NCBI RefSeq assembly: GCF_002087085.1
Contig: NZ_MWQY01000004.1
Location: forward strand, 62,001-126,000
Direction of reading: 5' to 3'
DNA length: 64,000 nucleotides
Shown here: positions 1 through 62,147 of the stretch, piece by piece
Position numbering within the stretch: position 1 is the stretch's first letter
Layout: the number at the start of each line of letters is the position of its first letter
Translations under genes and position numbers: made by a program
Notes under the pieces: generated by a model
Databases searched by the model: none
The model's input: only the letters and a program-made list of their open reading frames with translations
Told to the model about the DNA's origin: nothing

Positions 1-894
1 AAGAAGACCGGCGTCAAGGTCCCTCCGATACCAGGGATACATATACTGGTCAAACCTTCCGGGAGAAATACTGTGTCCGTTCGATTCGATCTGCAGAACG
101 AGATGAACAAACCAGAAGGACTGCAGGGCTTCATGAAAGGTTCTGGCGGGCTCATCCGGAATCCTGGAACAAATCTCAGCTATTCCCGAGAGCTCCTTCC
201 GGCGCTCAGGATCCGTCTCTTCTGCCGCAAGCTTCTGTGCATAGCTGCTGCATCGCCGGGCAAAGCGGATAAGGGCCTCACAGACGATCCGTAGCGCCCG
301 GTAGAAATTCCTCTTTTCGATTGCTTCCTGTGAGTCCGTGATCAGGGCAGCTTCGAGGCGGGAAGAATCATCGATGATCCTGCGCAGACCGTAACGGATG
401 CAGCGTTCGTAATCGACGGCGATATGTCCGACGCCGCTGGACAGGGAGGTCAGAATAAAGACCAGCTCCCGGTTGGCGGATTCGATTTCCTGCGGCAGCA
501 ACTGCAACACCCTGTCCTGAACACACCTGCCCTCCCACCAGGGAAGAATATTCCGCAGACTCCCTTTGACGCTTTCATCGATGGTGAAAATATCCGAATC
601 CCGCTTTTCAAAATCATCAAGCTCTTTCAGGATCCAGCGGGTTGAGAATTCCGGAAAAACCTCGGCACAGCGGGGCCGGGGCGCCTGGTTCCCGGCCAGG
701 AGATCGTTTTCAAGAATATAGAGGGTTTTATTGTCAAGGATATCCTCCAGAGCCCTGGCACGCAGAATCAGGGGGTCCTCATGTCCATATTTCTTATAGG
801 AACGGGTTACAATCTCCGCCCGTTCGGCGGAGATGGAAGGTGTGCAGCTGACTACCTGATCCTTCAGAGACTGACCACGCTTACTGATTCCCAT
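1..894 (-). CDS. Glycyl-radical enzyme (PFL-like/diol dehydratase-like family), N-terminal part; runs off the window edge
   Basis: Not in the ORF track. Manual translation from ATG 894 (RBS AGGAGG at 901-906): MGISKRGQSLKDQVVSCTPSISAERAEIVTRSY...LRARAL...LLAGNQ...VFPEFS...GVGHIAVDY...PARTFHEALQSFWFVHLVLQIESNGHSISPGRFDQYMYPW. Directly downstream of a GRE activase. Confidence 0.9.
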   Translation of the reverse strand, partial: MGISKRGQSLKDQVVSCTPSISAERAEIVTRSYKKYGHEDPLILRARALEDILDNKTLYILENDLLAGNQAPRPRCAEVFPEFSTRWILKELDDFEKRDSDIFTIDESVKGSLRNILPWWEGRCVQDRVLQLLPQEIESANRELVFILTSLSSGVGHIAVDYERCIRYGLRRIIDDSSRLEAALITDSQEAIEKRNFYRALRIVCEALIRFARRCSSYAQKLAAEETDPERRKELSGIAEICSRIPDEPARTFHEALQSFWFVHLVLQIESNGHSISPGRFDQYMYPWYRRDLDAGLL

Positions 895-16598: not shown

Positions 16599-19049
16599 TC
16601 AGACCACGGGAAAAGTAATGTAAAACACGGGGACAGGTTTGCGGGAAAGCGTAATACTCCCCTGAAGCTGTTTGACAAAGGCTGGAATCAGCTGCATCCC
16701 CAGGGACCGGGCATCGTTAAAATCGATATCCTCCGGGAAAGGACGTCCGGAATTGGAAAGCGTAAGGGAATATTCACCCCTGCTGAAATCCTGCGTCAAC
16801 TGTACCGTGAAGGACGGATCTTTTTCTTCACCGAAGCCGTGTTTGAGAGCGTTTATCGCTATCTCGTTCGTCAGCAGCGCGATGGGTATCGCCCTCCGGT
16901 GGTCCATGGAAATCTCCGCGACATCGTTGACTATCCGGATCGGGAACGATGAAAATGAAAAGACCGTTTCCAGGACCTCCTGCAGGTAGGTATGCAGATT
17001 TATACTTGAGAAGCTGTTTCCCCGGTACAACCTGGTGTTAAGAATATTGATGGCCTCAATATGCCGTTCTATATCCGACAGATCAACCTGATTCTCCAGT
17101 GTCGTACTTTTAAGCCTGATGAGGGACAGAATCATCGCCAGGTTATTCTTTGCCCGGTGACTGAACTCCTTCATCAGATAATCCTTTTCCTCCACCAGGG
17201 ACTGCAGATGCTGCTCTTCGTTTTTCCTGCCGGTAATGTCCCTGACTATTACAACAAGCGCATTCTCGTTGGGAAGAGGAGTCGCGCTTACTTCTACAAA
17301 GAGGCTGTTGTCTCCCGCGGTCCGATGAATCGTCTCAAAGGTTTCTCCTCCGCTCTCCATAATCCGGTGAAGATGGTCGTGAACATCCTTTCCTGTCTCC
17401 AGCAGATCGATATCCCCGATGGACATCTCCAGAAGCTCCGCTCTCGGGAATCCGGTCAGCGAACAGTAGGCACCGTTGACATCGGTTATGTGTGCATTGC
17501 CGTCGATCAACAGAAAACCGTCCTGCATGGTATGAACGATGGTTCGGTACTTTTCTTCCGCCAGCTTCTGTTCGCTTATATCCATATTAAATCCGACGAA
17601 GCGGACAGGAACACCTTCCGCATTGAAGATCGCCTTGCCGCGGCCAGATATCCAGCGATAGCTGCCGTCTTTGGCCCGCAGGCGAAAGACAGATTCGTAT
17701 ATATCCCTGGCCCCCGAAAGATACTCCTCCACACTCCTGAAGGCCTGCTCCCTGTCCTCAGGATGCAGCAGCTCGCTCCAGGCTTCGGATGTGTAGGGCA
17801 GTTCATCGGGATCATAGCCCAGCATGCGGGCGAAACGGTCTGAATGATATGCCTCGTTGGTTTCCAGGTTCCAGTCCCAGAGCCCGTCCCGGCTGCCTTC
17901 AACTGCCATACGCAGGCGTTCCTCGCTGATCATGAGGGATTCCTCTGCTGCCCTGAGACTGGAAATATCGTGAAAAATAGCCTGCAGGCAGTCATCGTGA
18001 ACCTTTTTACTGTTCATGATCACCGGGACAAGAGTCCCGTCTTTTTTCCGGATATTACGTTCCCGCTGTACGGTTTCACCCGCGTATACACGGCGGTAGG
18101 AGAGGGGATGCTCCGCCATTTCCTGCTGATCAAAAAGCACCCGGATATTTCTGCCCACCAGTTCTTCCCGGGAATACCCGGTAAGCTCGGTCATGTTTCT
18201 GTTAGCTTCGGTGATTATCCCCTCGGCATTGCCTATAAGAATGCCGTCTGCAGCCTGTTCAAAAATTGCCTTGAACCGATGTTCGCTTCTTTTCAGCTGT
18301 ATTTCGACTTCCTTCTTTTCACTGATGTCCCTGGTAATCGACAAAATATGAGGTTCGCCGTTCAGGGTGATCAATCGTGCCGACATCAGACCGGTTTTCC
18401 GACTGCCGTCCCTGCAGCGGAATACGGATTCCAAGTTCTCAACGATTCCGTCCTGTTTCAAGCCATTGACCAGTTTTTCCCGGTCCTCAGGTGATGCCCA
18501 GATATCGATATCGGAGGAGAGACGGCCGATAACATCTTCCCGGGTGAATCCGGTCATAGAAGTAAATCCTTCGTTGATATCCACATAGAGACCATCGAGC
18601 CTGTTGATGTTTATCGAATCCGGGCTGGTCATGAATGCAGCCCGATACTTCTGCTCGCTCTCTTTAATCTTCGACGAGGCATCGAAGAGCTTGTAGGCCA
18701 TCCGGATTGATTCGATCAGGATAAATTCCCCCGAATTCTTGAGAACATATCCGTACCCGCTGATCTGTTCCACCCGGTCAACGTACTGCTTTTCCGAGTG
18801 GCTGGTTAAAAAGATTATGGGAAGGTCCCGGATTTCGAGGATGCCCGCGGCCGCCGCTGTTCCGTCCATACCCTTGCCGAGATCGATATCCATGAGAACA
18901 AGGGAAATATCCGGATCCGATTGTACCAGGGATATGGCATCCTCTCCGTTTAACGCCGTATCAACAATAAAGTTGTGCTTTTTCAGTACCCGTGCTTCGG
19001 AGAGGGCGATAATAGATTCATCCTCGACCAGCAATATTTTTTTCGGCAT
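16599..19049 (-). CDS. Receiver-multi-PAS histidine kinase (HisKA_2-type)
   Basis: N-terminal REC (LLVEDE, LMDI), about four PAS domains, HRAKNNL H-box, NEIAINALKHGF, SLGMQL. Confidence 0.9.
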   Translation of the reverse strand: MPKKILLVEDESIIALSEARVLKKHNFIVDTALNGEDAISLVQSDPDISLVLMDIDLGKGMDGTAAAAGILEIRDLPIIFLTSHSEKQYVDRVEQISGYGYVLKNSGEFILIESIRMAYKLFDASSKIKESEQKYRAAFMTSPDSININRLDGLYVDINEGFTSMTGFTREDVIGRLSSDIDIWASPEDREKLVNGLKQDGIVENLESVFRCRDGSRKTGLMSARLITLNGEPHILSITRDISEKKEVEIQLKRSEHRFKAIFEQAADGILIGNAEGIITEANRNMTELTGYSREELVGRNIRVLFDQQEMAEHPLSYRRVYAGETVQRERNIRKKDGTLVPVIMNSKKVHDDCLQAIFHDISSLRAAEESLMISEERLRMAVEGSRDGLWDWNLETNEAYHSDRFARMLGYDPDELPYTSEAWSELLHPEDREQAFRSVEEYLSGARDIYESVFRLRAKDGSYRWISGRGKAIFNAEGVPVRFVGFNMDISEQKLAEEKYRTIVHTMQDGFLLIDGNAHITDVNGAYCSLTGFPRAELLEMSIGDIDLLETGKDVHDHLHRIMESGGETFETIHRTAGDNSLFVEVSATPLPNENALVVIVRDITGRKNEEQHLQSLVEEKDYLMKEFSHRAKNNLAMILSLIRLKSTTLENQVDLSDIERHIEAINILNTRLYRGNSFSSINLHTYLQEVLETVFSFSSFPIRIVNDVAEISMDHRRAIPIALLTNEIAINALKHGFGEEKDPSFTVQLTQDFSRGEYSLTLSNSGRPFPEDIDFNDARSLGMQLIPAFVKQLQGSITLSRKPVPVFYITFPVV

Positions 19050-19279: not shown

Positions 19280-19327
19280 GGAGTATAAACAATGGTTTAT
19301 CCATAAAAATGTATCGAGGAGTATCCC

Positions 19328-21565
19328 ATGAAAAAACCCGCAGCGGCAGCCGTTCTGTTTTACCTTGCCATCTTTACAGCTTTTATCCTTACAGGCTGCA
19401 GCGGCGGTGGGGCCGGGGGAGGAGAGCAACCCTATGCTCCTCAATCATCACTGGACGATATAATCCTGGACACGGATTTCTTACAACATGTCTATCTCGA
19501 CATTACCCAGAGTCAGATTGCCAATACATCCGTGGATATGGAATACAGCCTTACCGATGGATCCACCTGGGTGGACTGTACCGACAATCCCCAACCGGTG
19601 GTATTGACGGTCGGAACCGGAGTGTGGATCCGTAATGAAGGAGACGGTTCATCCGAGCGCTTTCTCGGCCAGGTGGATGCTTTATCCGGTCCCGATATTA
19701 ATGCGGGGGATGAGCTGTATGTCGGTGTCTATGACGCCGGAGCCAACACCTGGGACGATGTCTCCTCTGTGTCACCGGGAAATATCCTCAATATTCTTGC
19801 CTATATCCAAAATATCGGTACCGATGCCTGCCCTTCCGGTCACCGCTTCGACTTCTATATTTCGGATGACACGACAATAACGACTGCCGATACATTGATC
19901 CGCAGCTATGTGTATACCTCCGCTACAGCTGCCGGCGGAACAATGTCTTTCGTCCTCACCTTCCAGGTTCCCTCCGGCTTCTCCGCCGGGACCTACTACA
20001 TCGGATATATCGCCGACGCAGGGAATACTGTCAGCGAGATGAACGAGGGCAACAACACCTCCGCTCCCGAGGGGGTTACTCCGCTGATCGTCAAGGACAA
20101 TTCAGCAGTCCCGGGCGGGGCCGTTAAAATCTACAATTCCTGGGGTGAAGGGAACGGCTGGGAGAATAATGCCGACGGATACTACTGGATGCCCTACGAG
20201 GTCCTGAAAAATAACCGGATGCTGGTGAGCTACTACTACAACGATTTTACCCGGGAGTATAATCCCACCTCTGTACTGGTCTTTTCACTGACCCATCCGG
20301 AACGGGATAAGCTGCGCGTTACCGTCGGCCTGGGAGATCCAGCTGATCCGTATATGAAAAAAACATTTCAAAGTGAATGGAACAGCACAGACCTGATCAG
20401 CGGAGCGATCCCTTTTCCAGCCAACAGCATGATCCTGGATATAAGTGAGTTCGCAAGCGGCATCAACAGCTACGATCTCTTTTTCATGGTGGAAAATTCC
20501 AGCGGTACTTCCGGTTCACTTGGCAATCTGAGTCTCGAACTCTACGGCGATTATGATTCCCCCGCAATAAGAACGCTGAATTCTGTCTCCACCACATTAC
20601 CCGCAACCCTTTCTGCAAACGCAGAAACAACCGTATACCTCAGCACTGCAGGAGAACTGACCCTGACCGAACAACAGCAGATTCTCCCCATGTCCCGTTC
20701 CACGAGCCTGTCGGGCATTACTTTTAATGAACGTATGCCCTCCTCCGGAGAAATTGCCCGAAACATAGACCGCTACGGAGTGTATATTCCCGGAAAAAAC
20801 TACAACACAATAGTCAAGCAAGGTTTCGGAACCGGATATGCCCCCCCGTCTCGAAGCGTATGGGAAAGCACCAGGATCCTGGAGAGTATCGATACCGGAA
20901 TAACCAGGGGTACACTGCCCATGGCGGTTGACAACTCCGCCAGCGTTTATTTCCCCCCAACAGGCAATCAGGGATCCGAAGGTTCCTGTTCAGCCTTCTC
21001 GGTGGGCTATTACATCCAGACCTATACGGAAGCAAAGGAACACAACTGGGATCTTTCTTCAACAAGCTGGACCGGCGGCGCCACAGGTTCACCATCTTCA
21101 AACCTGGATAAAATTTTCAGCCCGGATTTTATCTATCATCAGATAAACGACGGCGGTGATAACGGGTCGAACATCATTCAGGCGGCCGGGCTGGTAACCA
21201 GAATCGGCGGCGCGACATGGAACACCATGCCCTACGATACTGCTGATTCAACCTCCTGGCCATCGGAGGCCGCCTGGCGGGAAGCCCCGAAATACCGGGG
21301 GCGGGAACCGGCCAAGTATTATTGGGACAATCTTTCAGCCGGTTATTTCGTTATAGAAGACGATTCAGGCATTCAGCTTCTGAAAAGTCTTCTCAACGCG
21401 GGCTACTGCGTCAGTACCGGTATTGCAGCAGAAACGGTGTATAACGGACTCGATATCAATGACGTCGTGAATTCGGCTGTTACGTGGACATCCACCAATC
21501 ATGCCCAGACTATTGTAGGCTATAAGGAGGGGACCTCGTGGGACCCGTCAAATCCCGACTCCTGA
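19328..21565 (+). CDS. Lipoprotein with CARDB domain and circularly permuted papain-like (C1) cysteine protease
   Basis: Lipobox LTGC24. CARDB-like domain (IQNIGT..YISDD..GTYYIGYIAD..VSEMNEGNN). KIYNSWG..DGYYWMPY at N270; LPMAVD..GNQGSEGSC554; FSPDFIY; NH725AQTIVGY. Confidence 0.85.
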   Translation: MKKPAAAAVLFYLAIFTAFILTGCSGGGAGGGEQPYAPQSSLDDIILDTDFLQHVYLDITQSQIANTSVDMEYSLTDGSTWVDCTDNPQPVVLTVGTGVWIRNEGDGSSERFLGQVDALSGPDINAGDELYVGVYDAGANTWDDVSSVSPGNILNILAYIQNIGTDACPSGHRFDFYISDDTTITTADTLIRSYVYTSATAAGGTMSFVLTFQVPSGFSAGTYYIGYIADAGNTVSEMNEGNNTSAPEGVTPLIVKDNSAVPGGAVKIYNSWGEGNGWENNADGYYWMPYEVLKNNRMLVSYYYNDFTREYNPTSVLVFSLTHPERDKLRVTVGLGDPADPYMKKTFQSEWNSTDLISGAIPFPANSMILDISEFASGINSYDLFFMVENSSGTSGSLGNLSLELYGDYDSPAIRTLNSVSTTLPATLSANAETTVYLSTAGELTLTEQQQILPMSRSTSLSGITFNERMPSSGEIARNIDRYGVYIPGKNYNTIVKQGFGTGYAPPSRSVWESTRILESIDTGITRGTLPMAVDNSASVYFPPTGNQGSEGSCSAFSVGYYIQTYTEAKEHNWDLSSTSWTGGATGSPSSNLDKIFSPDFIYHQINDGGDNGSNIIQAAGLVTRIGGATWNTMPYDTADSTSWPSEAAWREAPKYRGREPAKYYWDNLSAGYFVIEDDSGIQLLKSLLNAGYCVSTGIAAETVYNGLDINDVVNSAVTWTSTNHAQTIVGYKEGTSWDPSNPDS

Positions 21566-21936
21566 TCATACTCATGATCCCGGCAATTGCGGCTCCAGCG
21601 TTCTCTTCAGGTCCCCGGGAGAGAGCGCAGGAAAACGTGGTCAATCCAGCCCCGGAGACTGAAGCGTCAGGCGGTCTTACGGGGGGATTCAGGAAAGCGG
21701 AAAAGGACAATCCTCATGTAATCGAATCTGTCCGTTTTCTGAAAGCAGAAATGGACGCCCGGGGGATCAGGGTTCAGGAAGTCCGCAGTTCGGAAATCCA
21801 GGTTGTATCGGGATATAAAGTGCATCTTGTGGCTGAGTACCGAAAAAATGGAACCAGCGACGTTCTGGATGCCCTGATCTATCTGCCTCCCCGGGGAGAG
21901 CCTCAGTTATTATCGCTTACATACGGTGCTGAATAA
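21538..21936 (+). CDS. Secreted cystatin-like cysteine protease inhibitor
   Basis: GTG start with SD AAGGAGG; signal peptide; LTGGF N-terminal Gly motif, helix, QVVSG (QxVxG) loop at 21799-21813. Confidence 0.8.
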   Translation: MGPVKSRLLIILMIPAIAAPAFSSGPRERAQENVVNPAPETEASGGLTGGFRKAEKDNPHVIESVRFLKAEMDARGIRVQEVRSSEIQVVSGYKVHLVAEYRKNGTSDVLDALIYLPPRGEPQLLSLTYGAE

Positions 21937-21974: not shown

Positions 21975-22703
21975 TCAGGCATACCACCGGCAAAACAGCC
22001 GCTGCAGCAGGTCCAGGACCGCAAAAAAGAGAAGTCCCGCCAGGCTCAGGGCCATGATGCCGGCGTACATACGGGTGTAGGAGATCCTGGACCAGCTGTC
22101 CATGATGTACCAGCCTATCCCCGTCTGAGTGGCGAAGGTCTCAGCCAGAAACAGCACCGCGAAGGCGGTCCCCAGAGTCAGCCTCAGGGAGCTGAAAATC
22201 CGCGGAAGCAGGGCAGGCAGAATCACGTGGACCAGAAGGTCCCGCCTGCTTCCCCCCAGGGTATAGAGAGAGTCGAAATAATGCCTGTTGATTCCCGCGG
22301 TTCCGTCCCGAATTTCCAGGTAAAACTGAAAGAAAACGATCAGGGCCACGAGAAATATCTTTGAAAGGTCCCCAAGCCCCAGAAAGAGCAGAATGATCGG
22401 CAGAAGGGCGATTTTCGGAACCGGAAAGAGAACATAGACCACGGGGCTCACGACAGAGTCCGCTGCGCCGACGGTCCCGGAAAGAATTCCCAGAACCAGG
22501 GCTGGAACAAAGGCCGCAGCCAGTGCGGCCAGCACGCGAAAGAGAGAAGAACCGAGATGGAGCATCAGTTCGCCCCTGACAATCTCCGTAAACATTTCAC
22601 GGCCGACGGACACGGGGGAGGGCAGAAAGGGCCGGGCCACCAGGAACGAAGCGATCCACCACAGGGCAAAGAGGAACACCACGGCAAAGGCTGTCCTTTT
22701 CAT
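21975..22703 (-). CDS. ABC transporter permease (NitT/TauT family)
   Basis: LPSPVSV, PVPKIALLP, LGGSRRD..VILPA, AET..GIG. Confidence 0.9.
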   Translation of the reverse strand: MKRTAFAVVFLFALWWIASFLVARPFLPSPVSVGREMFTEIVRGELMLHLGSSLFRVLAALAAAFVPALVLGILSGTVGAADSVVSPVVYVLFPVPKIALLPIILLFLGLGDLSKIFLVALIVFFQFYLEIRDGTAGINRHYFDSLYTLGGSRRDLLVHVILPALLPRIFSSLRLTLGTAFAVLFLAETFATQTGIGWYIMDSWSRISYTRMYAGIMALSLAGLLFFAVLDLLQRLFCRWYA

Positions 22704-23452
22704 ATCCTGCCTCCGGCGGGCTTCGCGGTAATGCTTTCCAGGGTATTCCTGATTTCGACACAGCTGGAAAAAAAACCGCCGCTTTTTCGGTCCCCTGCCC
22801 TGGAGGATGTATTGCTGATCCTCGTGATGCCGCCCTGCATGTCCATTACATGAATCTCATCGCTCAGATAGGCGGCCTCTTCAATGCTGTGGGTAACCAG
22901 GATAATCGTCATGGCCCTCTCCCGGTGAACGGCAAGCAGGTAGTCCTGAAGCTGTTCCCGGGTCATGGCGTCCAGGGACGAGAAGGGTTCATCCAGGAGC
23001 ATCAGGTCCGGGTCGAGGACCAGGGAGCGCCCCACGGCGAGGCGTTGCTTCTCTCCTCCCGAGAGCTTTGCGGGATAGCTTTTTTCCTTGCCCCCGAGAC
23101 CCAGCTCCCCCAGGACCCGGTCGATCCTGAAAGCCCGTTCAGTCCGGGAAAAACCCCGGAGCCTGAGGCCCAGGGCCATGTTCTCGCAGACCGTCTTCCA
23201 CGGAAAGAGCCCGTACTCCTGCAGGATTACCGCCGTCTTCTCCCGTCCTCTTTGGGGAGCCTCCCCGTTCAGGAGCAGACCTCCCCGTTTGGCAGACAGG
23301 AGCCCGGCGATGAGATAAAGCAGGGTTGTCTTTCCGCAGCCCGATGGCCCTATGACCACATGCAGCTTCCCCGCCTCAAAGGAGTGGGAAAGTCCCCGGA
23401 ACACCCGCTGTCCGGAGCTATAGTCAAAATCCAGGTCCCGGATATGAATCAT
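22700..23452 (-). CDS. ABC transporter ATP-binding protein (NitT/TauT family)
   Basis: GPSGCGKT, LFPWKTV, LSGGEKQR, LLDEPFSSLD. Confidence 0.93.
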   Translation of the reverse strand: MIHIRDLDFDYSSGQRVFRGLSHSFEAGKLHVVIGPSGCGKTTLLYLIAGLLSAKRGGLLLNGEAPQRGREKTAVILQEYGLFPWKTVCENMALGLRLRGFSRTERAFRIDRVLGELGLGGKEKSYPAKLSGGEKQRLAVGRSLVLDPDLMLLDEPFSSLDAMTREQLQDYLLAVHRERAMTIILVTHSIEEAAYLSDEIHVMDMQGGITRISNTSSRAGDRKSGGFFSSCVEIRNTLESITAKPAGGRI

Positions 23453-23460
23453 CTAAGGTT

Positions 23461-24408
23461 TTATTGCTCCAGTTCTTCAACTACGGCATCAAAACAGAGA
23501 TCCTCGTATTCCGGAGGGGCTTCAATCATTCCGCGCCGCATCATCCAGTCGGCGGCAGCGCTTATCTCCTCCCGTTCCGGAAGCCGGGGATACTCATACT
23601 CCACAAAGGAGAAGCTTTCCCTGATCACCGGCGGAAATCCCATTACGTCCACCAGAAAATCCCGGTAGGCGTCAGGATCGGTGTTGATATTCCTGCAGGC
23701 TTCCCAGTAGGCCCGGTAGACCCGCACTATCTCATCGGAGCGCTCCCGGAGGACCTCCCCGTCAAAGAGCATGACCCCCGGATCCATACCCAGGGCATTG
23801 CTGTCTCCCAGGGGCACCGCACCTCTGGCCACCGCGAGGGCATAGAGAGGTTCAGGAAGACAGGCTGCAGGGAGCTTTCCGTTAAGAAGAAGTTCCATCC
23901 TTACCGGGATTTTGGGTACCGCCAGGGGCTTGAACCCGGAATCCGGAATCCCTGCCTCGCTGAGCAGGCTGGAGGCCACGTACTCGATCACGGTATTGGA
24001 TGAGACACCGATCTCCTTTCCTGCAAGATCCGCGGGGCTCCCGGCATTCGATCCCGGGGCGGCGGCCAGCCCGTAGCGTCCGGTGGTAATGGAGGCAATC
24101 CGGACGTCCATGCCCCCGGTAAAAAGGAGGATCGATCCGATGGCATCGGCAATGATTCCATCGATCTGCCCTGCCTGGAAGGCTGCATCCCGTTCCACGG
24201 GATTCTGAAACATCACCAGTTCAACCGCCGCCCCTGCATCGGAAAAACGACCCTCCTCCCGGGCGACCAGAAAAGGCAGGGAATCGGCATCCGGGAGAAG
24301 TCCGATTTTAAGGGCCTCGTCAGGTTTTTCACCGGCACCTCCGGCAAAGAGCAGGGCGGAAACAGAAAACAGCAGAATGAGAAAAATTGTTGTTCGTTGT
24401 GCAGACAT
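23461..24408 (-). CDS. ABC transporter substrate-binding protein (SsuA/NMT1-like)
   Basis: Signal peptide ending LFAGG; KIGLLPDADSLP, ERDAAFQAGQID, LPEP. Confidence 0.85.
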   Translation of the reverse strand: MSAQRTTIFLILLFSVSALLFAGGAGEKPDEALKIGLLPDADSLPFLVAREEGRFSDAGAAVELVMFQNPVERDAAFQAGQIDGIIADAIGSILLFTGGMDVRIASITTGRYGLAAAPGSNAGSPADLAGKEIGVSSNTVIEYVASSLLSEAGIPDSGFKPLAVPKIPVRMELLLNGKLPAACLPEPLYALAVARGAVPLGDSNALGMDPGVMLFDGEVLRERSDEIVRVYRAYWEACRNINTDPDAYRDFLVDVMGFPPVIRESFSFVEYEYPRLPEREEISAAADWMMRRGMIEAPPEYEDLCFDAVVEELEQ

Positions 24409-60744: not shown

Positions 60745-62147
60745 TCAATAACTCCCCGGCGCTTCAGGAACTCCCTGGCAAGCCGTGTCTCCCGGAGGGA
60801 GAGAATATTCGCGTCCGCCGTCTCCATTAAAAGGGTCTCCCCCAGGGCGGACATATCATGGGTGATGTAGAACATCCCCAGATAAAAAAACATCTGACTT
60901 TTCAGAAGAGGCTGCTTCTCCTCTTTCAGCTTCCTCAGGGCCGTTCCCTCGTAGCCGGGTTCCACAAAAGTCCTGGCAACATGATAGGCCCCGGAATCCC
61001 GCGGAAAGGTATTCACGATACCCCGGAAATACTCTGTTCCCTTCTCGGCATCCCCTTCCACAAAATAGAGAGCCCCGACCATCAGCTTGAATCCGGGGTT
61101 CTCCTGATCCTGTTCACTGCTCATGCGATAAAGACGGCGGGCCTCCGGGTAGCGCTCTGCCAGCACATAGAGCATACCGAGATCCGGATATACCGGATAG
61201 TAGTCCGGCCGCCTGGAAATAACAAACTCAAGATCCTTCAGGGCCTCAGCGTAGCGCCCCAGATCTATCAGGATGCCTCCCCGATAGACGTAGGCGTAAA
61301 AAAGCTCAGGGTTGATCTCAACGGCACGGTCGAAATCCTCCAGGGCCAGGGACGGTTTTGCAAGATCGATGAGCCGCACCTTGCCCCGGTCAATATAGTG
61401 CCAGTAGTGGTCCGGGAGCGCCTCTATGGCCCTGGTCAGATCCTCTTCCGCGCCTTTGGGGTTTCCGAGCCTGAGTTTGCTGCGGGCACGGTCGGCATAG
61501 ACGAAGGAGTAATCCGGGTCGATTCTGGCGGCCTCATTGAACTGCTCGACTGATTCCTGATAGTCCTCGGTCCTTCTGAGGGCATTCGCGTAACCCAGGC
61601 GGGCAACAAAGCTGTCGGGATCCGATTCCAGGCTGCGCCGGAAGGATTCCTTCGCTTTGCGGTATTCCCTGCGTTCCAGGTAGAGTTCGCCCAGGGAGGC
61701 GTTCGCCCGGGGCTCTCCCGCATCTATACTCAGGATCTCCTCCAGCGTTGATTCCCTGTCCTTGTTTTCTCCCCGGGCACCCTGCACAAGGGAAAGGTTG
61801 TAGAGGGCATTTATATTCTCCGGGTTCTCCTTAAGGACCGCTTCAAGCTCCGACTCCGCTTCGTCGAACTGTCCCACCGCCAAAAGCAGCGAAGAGTAGA
61901 GAACCCGGGTTTCCGGGTCCTCCGGAGCCTCCCGCTTCGCCCGTTCGAAGGCGGAGATCGCCGCTGAGGGATCTCCGGTGGCGGCGTAGTAGCTGACGCC
62001 CCGGTAGGTCTCTTCCTCCAGGCTGGTTTCCGGTATCGCTTCGGGTTCAGGTTCTACAGTTTTTGGCGCCGTGGCACAACCGAAGAAAATATAGGCAGCC
62101 AGGAGAGAAACAAGAAGCGGGGAGAATATGCGGTGCGTAGCTGACAT
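60741..62147 (-). CDS. Tetratricopeptide-repeat lipoprotein
   Basis: Lipobox FFGC and multiple TPR repeats; start 62147 or 62156. Confidence 0.85.
   Translation of the reverse strand: MSATHRIFSPLLVSLLAAYIFFGCATAPKTVEPEPEAIPETSLEEETYRGVSYYAATGDPSAAISAFERAKREAPEDPETRVLYSSLLLAVGQFDEAESELEAVLKENPENINALYNLSLVQGARGENKDRESTLEEILSIDAGEPRANASLGELYLERREYRKAKESFRRSLESDPDSFVARLGYANALRRTEDYQESVEQFNEAARIDPDYSFVYADRARSKLRLGNPKGAEEDLTRAIEALPDHYWHYIDRGKVRLIDLAKPSLALEDFDRAVEINPELFYAYVYRGGILIDLGRYAEALKDLEFVISRRPDYYPVYPDLGMLYVLAERYPEARRLYRMSSEQDQENPGFKLMVGALYFVEGDAEKGTEYFRGIVNTFPRDSGAYHVARTFVEPGYEGTALRKLKEEKQPLLKSQMFFYLGMFYITHDMSALGETLLMETADANILSLRETRLAREFLKRRGVIE

Follow-up and report, generated by a model that had tools for sequence, protein, structure and literature searches.

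In a window of 64,000 nucleotides (positions 62,001 to 126,000 of the forward strand of contig NZ_MWQY01000004.1, assembly GCF_002087085.1), we describe a spirochaete gene for a predicted lipoprotein whose C-terminal two thirds are homologous to peptidases of the papain family (MEROPS C1/Pfam Peptidase_C1), with the catalytic residues in a permuted order. The gene is overlapped at its end by a second gene of the cystatin family. It translates as one open reading frame (ORF) of 745 residues and a stop codon, uninterrupted, as a sequence-only reading of the same DNA had noted. Along the chain the order of catalytic residues is Asn270, Gln548, Cys554 and His725, not the linear order Gln, Cys, His, Asn. 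The sequence-only reading had located the codons of Asn, Cys and His exactly, in the motifs GAVKIYNSWG...DGYYWMPY, GNQGSEGSC and NHAQTIVGY, and its estimates of distance agree with our counts: Asn precedes Cys by 284 residues (about 280 had been given), and 13 residues plus the stop codon follow VGY (about 12 had been given), i.e., the chain ends 20 residues after H725. The features of the two genes are collected in Table 1. That reading had missed three of them, namely the lipobox, the pro-like linker that was retained, and the gene for the cystatin.

Table 1. Coordinates of the permuted peptidase gene, the downstream cystatin gene and their parts in the window
Feature	Position	Strand	Remarks and basis
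Shine-Dalgarno-like GAGGAG	19316..19321	+	6 nt upstream of ATG; read from sequence
Permuted C1 peptidase gene (putative peptidase)	19328..21565	+	745 aa and stop; ORF translation and homologue search
Predicted signal peptide with lipobox L-T-G-C	19328..19399	+	Cys24 at 19397-19399; motif read by eye
CARDB domain, residues 145-245	19760..20062	+	Pfam PF07705, 38.6 bits against a cut-off of 22.7
Relocated C-terminal papain-fold strands, residues 262-305	20111..20242	+	N270 (20135-20137) and SWG; alignments and model strands
Beta-sandwich domain, residues 306-443	20243..20656	+	Downstream of the catalytic domain in canonical relatives; all-beta in the model
Junction, residues 444-463	20657..20716	+	Leads from old C-terminal side to old N-terminus; without counterpart in canonical relatives; gap between aligned segments
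Pro-like region, residues 464-530	20717..20917	+	Homologous to the canonical stretch from signal peptide to Gln/Cys; alignments start at subject residues 28-72
Catalytic core, residues 531-733	20918..21526	+	Q548 at 20969-20971, C554 at 20987-20989, H725 at 21500-21502
Conserved C-terminal tail KEGTSWDPSNPDS and stop codon	21527..21565	+	Remnant of the His-Asn hairpin loop
Shine-Dalgarno AAGGAGG	21524..21530	+	Inside the last peptidase codons, 7 nt before GTG 21538; read from sequence
Cystatin-family gene	21538..21936	+	132 aa with signal peptide; GTG start; overlaps the peptidase gene by 28 nt

Swapped homology, cut point and descent

The order of homologous segments in the protein is the reverse of that in papain-family relatives with the canonical layout. 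Among 92 homologues from a first database search, sorted by pairwise BLASTP, 65 follow the query's own order over residues ~260-745 and 23 give two swapped high-scoring segment pairs, in which query residues 264-443 correspond to subject residues ~300-477 and query residues 464-738 to subject residues ~28-300; one of the others matches the core only and three the CARDB domain only. E-values to the canonical relatives range from 1e-14 to 1e-27 for residues 264-443 and from 1e-42 to 1e-59 for residues 464-738. The first of these segments comprises the Asn strands and the beta-sandwich and aligns with residues ~303-477 of canonical relatives, i.e., the beta-rich domain has moved ahead of the core together with the Asn part, as had been proposed from the sequence along with the permuted triad order and the expectation of swapped matches to non-permuted C1 peptidases. 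Two homologous segments are thus exchanged, the new termini lie inside a domain and the old termini are joined, as is characteristic of a circular permutant.

The permuted order is shared by a large group of proteins from uncultured bacteria. An exhaustive search at the level of representatives returned 2873 clusters when the limit was E <= 1e-3, of which 352 reached E <= 1e-30. The Asn part precedes the core in 110 of 217 fetched proteins and follows it in 98 (of the others, 5 contain just the core, 1 contains just the Asn part, and 3 are CARDB-only proteins with neither). The best 150 representatives at 50% identity clustering comprise 65 permuted, 82 canonical and 3 partial forms, and 80 genome loci found with tblastn comprise 41 permuted, 37 canonical and 2 partial ones. 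The sequence-only reading had named a collinear order in close relatives as an outcome that would speak against it; relatives near and far keep the permuted order instead (110 of the 217 proteins and 41 of the 80 loci). Duplicated intermediates (B-A-B or A-B-A) were absent from the 217 proteins. Of 34 short matches that might represent split forms, 33 were checked by BLAST; they begin or end mid-domain, most of them on short contigs, and there was no clean stand-alone core gene among them, which does not prove that such genes are absent. One locus from a metagenome-assembled genome (MAG) of the Spirochaetaceae (L025) has two tblastn matches per segment and may hold two family members side by side.

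Conservation of the catalytic residues is strict. The columns N, S, W, G, Q, C and H are invariant in all 37 aligned permuted members, which share 38-90% identity with the first row, and across the 110 permuted proteins Q and C occur in 110, H in 108 (2 not aligned) and N in 107 (3 not aligned), with zero substitutions. Gln and the nucleophile Cys stand in a Q-x5-C motif at the start of a helix and His in H-A-x-x-x-V-G-Y, with Q548, C554 and H725 invariant; the third catalytic residue, N270, lies in an equally invariant N-S-W-G motif that aligns with the C-terminal part of xylellain. The oxyanion Gln, Q548, is 6 residues ahead of C554, and papain has the same spacing. Agreement of this kind goes well beyond what chance would produce.

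The position of the cut can be read from the chain ends. Canonical relatives have a hairpin of the form NHANTIVGYDDNFGPYTESGxxxxYGAFKVANSWG, in which 28-30 residues separate His and Asn. The chains of permuted proteins finish with ...NHAQTIVGYKEGxxWxPxNPDx or with a shorter ...VGYDD..., and their Asn segment begins with ...GAFKxxNSWG directly after the N-terminal accessory domain. As these tails and heads align with the canonical hairpin, the cut falls within the loop that connects the His strand to the Asn strand, in agreement with the sequence-only reading. In each of the 40 permuted ORFs that have a 3' stop, the chain closes 10-22 residues past His, whereas canonical ORFs continue for >100 and up to >1200 residues beyond it. 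The median number of residues before the first and after the last catalytic segment is 288 and 12 in permuted proteins, as against 111 and 488 in canonical ones. The old N-terminus has been kept: the canonical stretch from signal peptide to Gln/Cys corresponds to query residues 464-547, and only the signal peptide is missing. A second permuted type (L030, L038, L039, L060, L064) ends 10-15 residues after His (VGYDD.., VGYRDD) and is, near the cut, closer to the canonical relatives than the other permuted proteins are; it may stem from an earlier or separate permutation event.

We computed a quick IQ-TREE phylogeny from 82 rows and 350 columns, with the core and Asn segments aligned separately and three canonical proteins with clear PF00112 matches as outgroup. 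The main permuted clade (35 rows) received a Shimodaira-Hasegawa-like approximate likelihood ratio test (SH-aLRT) support of 100 and the nearest canonical clade (39 rows) a support of 92, while two short-tailed permuted groups (L030, L064 and L060, L038, L039) fall into the unresolved base of the tree. The free tree needs two changes of order, of which well-supported branches force only one. Forcing all permuted rows into one group lowers the log-likelihood by 2.66 units (P-value of the approximately unbiased test 0.423, for a hand-picked 33 of the 82 rows), i.e., a single origin of the permutation is not rejected, nor is it shown, by these alignments. Permuted forms occur in Spirochaetota, Riflebacteria, Kosmotogaceae/Mesotoga (Thermotogota), Cloacimonadota and one Bathyarchaeota MAG, and the canonical sisters mainly in Bathyarchaeia, Thermoplasmatota, Ignavibacteriota, Bacteroidota and Calditrichota. 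The permuted gene of the Bathyarchaeota MAG (L040, on a contig of 1576 bases) is nested in a spirochaete clade, which could be due to gene transfer or to a binning error on this very short contig. The genome that contains the window (97% complete) has a single copy of the peptidase, and among 41 related genomes including this one, 9 have a match at E <= 1e-10, a patchy distribution.

Predicted fold and the downstream cystatin gene

A profile of the 37 permuted members, searched against the PDB, matches cathepsin K (E 2.5e-6), cathepsin L, procerain and papain. Profile positions 504-532 with the Gln/Cys motif correspond to cathepsin K residues 2-30 and positions 660-714 with the His motif to residues 119-173, and the NSWG part (244-277) corresponds to the C-terminal end of xylellain (3ois_A residues 251-280; in the query, residues 267-302 align with 3ois_A 252-283). 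Four permuted proteins (P0056, P0057, P0062, P0086) also pass the PF00112 cut-off with 22.1-31.9 bits as compared to 20.7. They match profile positions 1-177 of 220 only, at their extreme C-termini, whereas the match of canonical relatives extends to position 195-206. Close homologues are publicly named 'CARDB domain-containing protein' or 'hypothetical'.

AlphaFold2, run on residues 258-745 with 37 sequences, predicts one compact body with a mean predicted local distance difference test score (pLDDT) of 91.6 and a predicted template modelling score (pTM) of 0.92. The N-terminal strands are predicted with confidence (pLDDT 92-98 at model residues 11-40), and residues 262-305 form strands at model residues 7-12, 28-32 and 42-46. 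The predicted two-lobe fold is papain-like: the best Foldseek matches are xylellain, procathepsin K and papain, with probability 1.0, and in a Foldseek-independent scan (VIA) of 48,161 representative chains, all 25 chains at Z >= 8 are C1 family entries. VIA aligned xylellain with Z 15.7 (203 residues, root-mean-square deviation 3.4), papain 2cio_A residues 1..169 on model residues 273..478 with Z 13.1 and the cathepsin L heavy chain 1icf_A 1..175 on model residues 273..484 with Z 13.7. The pro-like region is taken in as well, with model residues 232..483 aligned to xylellain 26..250. Mature reference enzymes align only to residue ~169-186, and their final ~40 residues are left unpaired at the model C-terminus because the model chain ends there. 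The junction is the sole low-confidence stretch at a domain boundary (pLDDT <50 at model residues 202-205, block mean 62). For the beta-sandwich, the VIA scan gave weak PLAT or P-domain-like matches only (Z 5.7-6.9), in addition to Atlas leads, and no family is named. No solved chain with the same permuted topology was found among the 48,161 representatives, which is no proof of its absence.

The product of the downstream gene has the N-terminal Gly, the QxVxG hairpin and the predicted fold of cystatins (I25). Although the single sequence has no Pfam match, G49, Q88 and G92, corresponding to the N-terminal Gly and the QxVxG motif, are invariant in 14 aligned sequences, and a profile matches multicystatin (E 4e-9), tick sialostatins, stefin A and cystatin C. 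The AlphaFold2 model (pLDDT ~95 over residues 50-130) has one helix and four long strands, and among the Foldseek matches listed most are cystatins, nearly all matches having probability 1.0. ORFs of this kind also immediately follow the peptidase gene in other permuted loci. In a profile scan, 15 of 42 permuted-type loci had the cystatin ORF downstream (the profile itself was built from 13 of the 15), as against none of 37 canonical loci within 3 kb. The coupling of the two genes points to a possible control of the cell's own peptidase.

The genes on either side, at 16599..19049 and 21975..24408, are on the minus strand, and the peptidase and cystatin genes therefore look like a two-gene unit of their own. 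Judged by their translations alone, the upstream neighbour is a hybrid of receiver, PAS and histidine kinase domains and ABC transporter genes lie downstream. A scan for promoters and terminators gave no promoter-like site; it gave two terminator-like sites, neither of them between or after the two genes, and this count is below the shuffled mean. Within the peptidase, residues ~55-140 (19490..19750) are conserved among full-length homologues with the consensus EYS...W..C.G and have no Pfam match.

Interpretation and alternatives

Taken together, the swapped homology and its conservation across the family, the invariant catalytic residues, the cut point and the confident papain-like model make it very probable that the gene product is a functional intramolecular circular permutant of a papain-family peptidase. 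Such doubt as remains concerns geometry and activity and not the permutation itself. The observation of the sequence-only reading, the permuted order, is hence confirmed, and its interpretation as a circular permutation is supported. In canonical relatives the signal peptide and pro-like region lead into Gln-Cys...His; a hairpin loop of ~20 residues then connects to the Asn-Ser-Trp-Gly strands, behind which come the beta-sandwich and accessory or anchor domains. Here the chain is opened in the His-Asn hairpin loop, and the Asn strands and beta-sandwich (262-443) now come first, after the predicted lipoprotein signal and the CARDB domain. The 20-residue junction ties the beta-sandwich to the old pro-like N-terminus (464-530), followed by the stretch from Q548/C554 to H725 and the chain end 20 residues on. 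For the folded enzyme we propose the following model. The N-terminal Asn strand would pack beside the His strand, and N270 would orient H725 as Asn175 does in papain. The resulting enzyme may be an active, lipid-anchored extracytoplasmic peptidase. It is probably made as a zymogen in which the pro-like linker is cut, and the translationally coupled cystatin probably restrains it.

Three alternatives have to be weighed against this permutant. The NSWG piece could be a leftover of a fusion that folds alone, away from the active site, with the core working (or not) without Asn, i.e., as a Cys-His dyad enzyme or a pseudo-enzyme. Papain-like Cys-His dyad enzymes do exist according to a survey of the superfamily (PMC10318531), and the triad geometry of the permutant is deduced from homology and the model rather than from coordinates. 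Nevertheless, we consider this explanation improbable: N, S, W and G are invariant in 37/37 members and N is kept in 107/107 alignable permuted proteins, the model is one rigid body with the high pTM and N-terminal pLDDT values given above, and a core deprived of residues 262-305 would miss three strands of the R-domain. It is also conceivable that chains complement each other in a domain-swapped dimer or oligomer, each core receiving its Asn strands from a partner chain, as termini inside a hairpin together with a long linker could permit. The monomer model is confident, however, and with a linker of ~87 residues (junction and pro-like region) and a beta-sandwich of 138 residues the chain is easily long enough to close on itself, which leaves such trans-complementation a slim chance.

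An assembly artefact, in which a chimeric contig would join two tandem peptidase genes, has a negligible probability. We found no point in its favour, and for practical purposes the data exclude misassembly. The same order is present in 110 proteins from many assemblies (32-99% identity) and, across many independent MAGs, in 40 further genome loci; reading frame, stop and overlapping downstream gene are preserved as well. In line with the check on misassembly that the sequence-only reading had called for, Logan contigs of four runs from four studies, one of which may be the source sample of the window, cover the region 19900-21700 without joint or indel (X1 and X2 span 19900-21700, X5 20001-21697 and X11 19900-21338).

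Several observations weigh against the proposed permutant peptidase. The query has no PF00112 match at E <= 1 as a whole or at E <= 0.1 as halves, and because of this the assignment to C1 depends on homologues, profile and fold; NCBIfam likewise gave no match to the 745-residue protein, in which Pfam sees only the CARDB domain. No PF00112 match at E <= 0.01 was found in the protein's own genome, which thus appears to lack any C1 peptidase, as this one is invisible to PF00112 and NCBIfam. A Pfam scan did not find Inhibitor_I29 in the pro-like linker. Foldseek and VIA are sequential aligners and cannot superpose the relocated strands. Of the structural expectation that C554, H725 and N270 come together, the model bears out the confident single body, and the contact between N270 and H725, as well as the geometry of N270, H725 and C554, is predicted from homology and model confidence. 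Sequencing runs of RNA had at most 0.14 of the words present, and these shares are small. Finally, a lipobox-like [GAS]C after a signal-like stretch was counted in 71/83 permuted as compared to 4/62 canonical proteins, a contrast that is a lead rather than a test, as it comes from our own crude regular expression and from kin that are not independent; proteins without a signal-like stretch or Met start (27/110 permuted, 36/98 canonical) are left out of the count.

The lipobox of the window protein itself was read by eye (L-T-G-C24 after a hydrophobic stretch). As a lead, the contrast between permuted and canonical proteins suggests a use of the permutation, which may let an N-terminal lipid anchor and N-terminal adhesion domains remain joined to the catalytic domain even if the pro-like linker is excised. 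It is tempting, though rather doubtful, to extend this to an evolutionary reading in which the permutation resolves a conflict between N-terminal anchoring and zymogen activation and gives an anchored two-chain enzyme with a cystatin guard. A canonical C1 zymogen would lose anything N-terminal of the propeptide when the propeptide is cut off, and its anchors would be C-terminal for that reason; the canonical C-termini include transmembrane-plus-basic tails (10/98 by our own heuristic) and, by eye, some ends resembling those of type IX secretion system (T9SS) substrates. The enzymes of spirochaetes and Riflebacteria could be N-terminally lipidated and carry N-terminal adhesion domains because their Asn strands and beta-sandwich precede the pro-like region. 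Cutting the linker would then yield a non-covalent two-chain enzyme on the cell, with Asn on the anchored chain and Cys and His on the other, and the co-translated cystatin would guard the cell until export.

Relation to known peptidases and inhibitors

The papain family is among the best-studied enzyme families, and its Gln-Cys-His-Asn order is treated as fixed. The proteins described here form a sizeable natural clade (65 of the best 150 representatives, see above) in which the opening of the fold lies between the His and Asn strands and no catalytic residue has been lost, a natural test case for the tolerance of a catalytic triad to re-threading. As several members, including the window protein, escape the Pfam C1 model, peptidase inventories of sediment bacteria undercount the clade. 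In a 2023 survey of prokaryotic C1 peptidases, multidomain forms were excluded from the analysis and words starting with 'permut' do not occur. Full-text searches of the main texts of papers outside subscription journals yielded no account of a permuted C1 peptidase.

The closest known relatives are the canonical multidomain prokaryotic C1A peptidases (P0065, P0068-P0085, loci L035-L080), in which the two segments are 35-45% identical to those of the query. Common to both are the pro-like region, the residues Q, C, H and N, and the beta-sandwich, which in the canonical peptidases follows the catalytic domain. The canonical peptidases differ in the order of core and Asn part, in having accessory or anchor domains at the C-terminus, in the scarcity of lipobox-like starts, and in lacking an adjacent cystatin gene. 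Xylellain (PDB 3ois), papain and cathepsins K and L are the best structural and profile matches (Z 13-15.7) and have the same Gln-x5-Cys and H-A-x-x-x-V-G-Y motifs, but their last ~40 residues, with Asn and Trp, correspond to query residues 262-305, which are upstream here. In two-chain cathepsin L (175-residue heavy chain and light chain), the heavy chain provides His and the light chain provides Asn. This enzyme thus resembles the window protein in having a break between the His and Asn strands while being active, although its break is post-translational and its gene order canonical. By analogy with this natural two-chain enzyme, a break at the His-Asn site would be compatible with activity.

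The coupled cystatin gene adds a candidate bacterial protease-inhibitor pair. Bacterial cystatins and stefins are reported to be rare and patchily distributed and have been proposed as possible defences against host proteases (PMC2784779). The product of the downstream ORF resembles cystatins (MEROPS I25) in its N-terminal Gly, QxVxG and predicted fold and differs from them in lacking PW in the second hairpin, as read from the alignment. A further difference is that its gene overlaps, and appears to be translationally coupled to, a C1 peptidase gene of the same cell.

Circular permutation as such is documented in clan CA, in LRAT, YaeF/YiiX (NlpC/P60 superfamily), C92, C97 PPPDE and LupA (PMC10318531, PMC3142127); the superfamily survey describes the papain/cathepsin cluster as canonical (PMC10318531). 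Those enzymes are likewise natural permutations of the papain-like fold with the catalytic residues kept. However, they belong to other families, have the Cys helix (with or without strand beta1') at the C-terminus, and place His before Cys, whereas in the protein presented here Cys is still ahead of His and the strands after His have moved to the front. New here are therefore the cut point and the residue order Asn, Gln, Cys, His in a C1A homologue, in a clan in which permutation was already known elsewhere.

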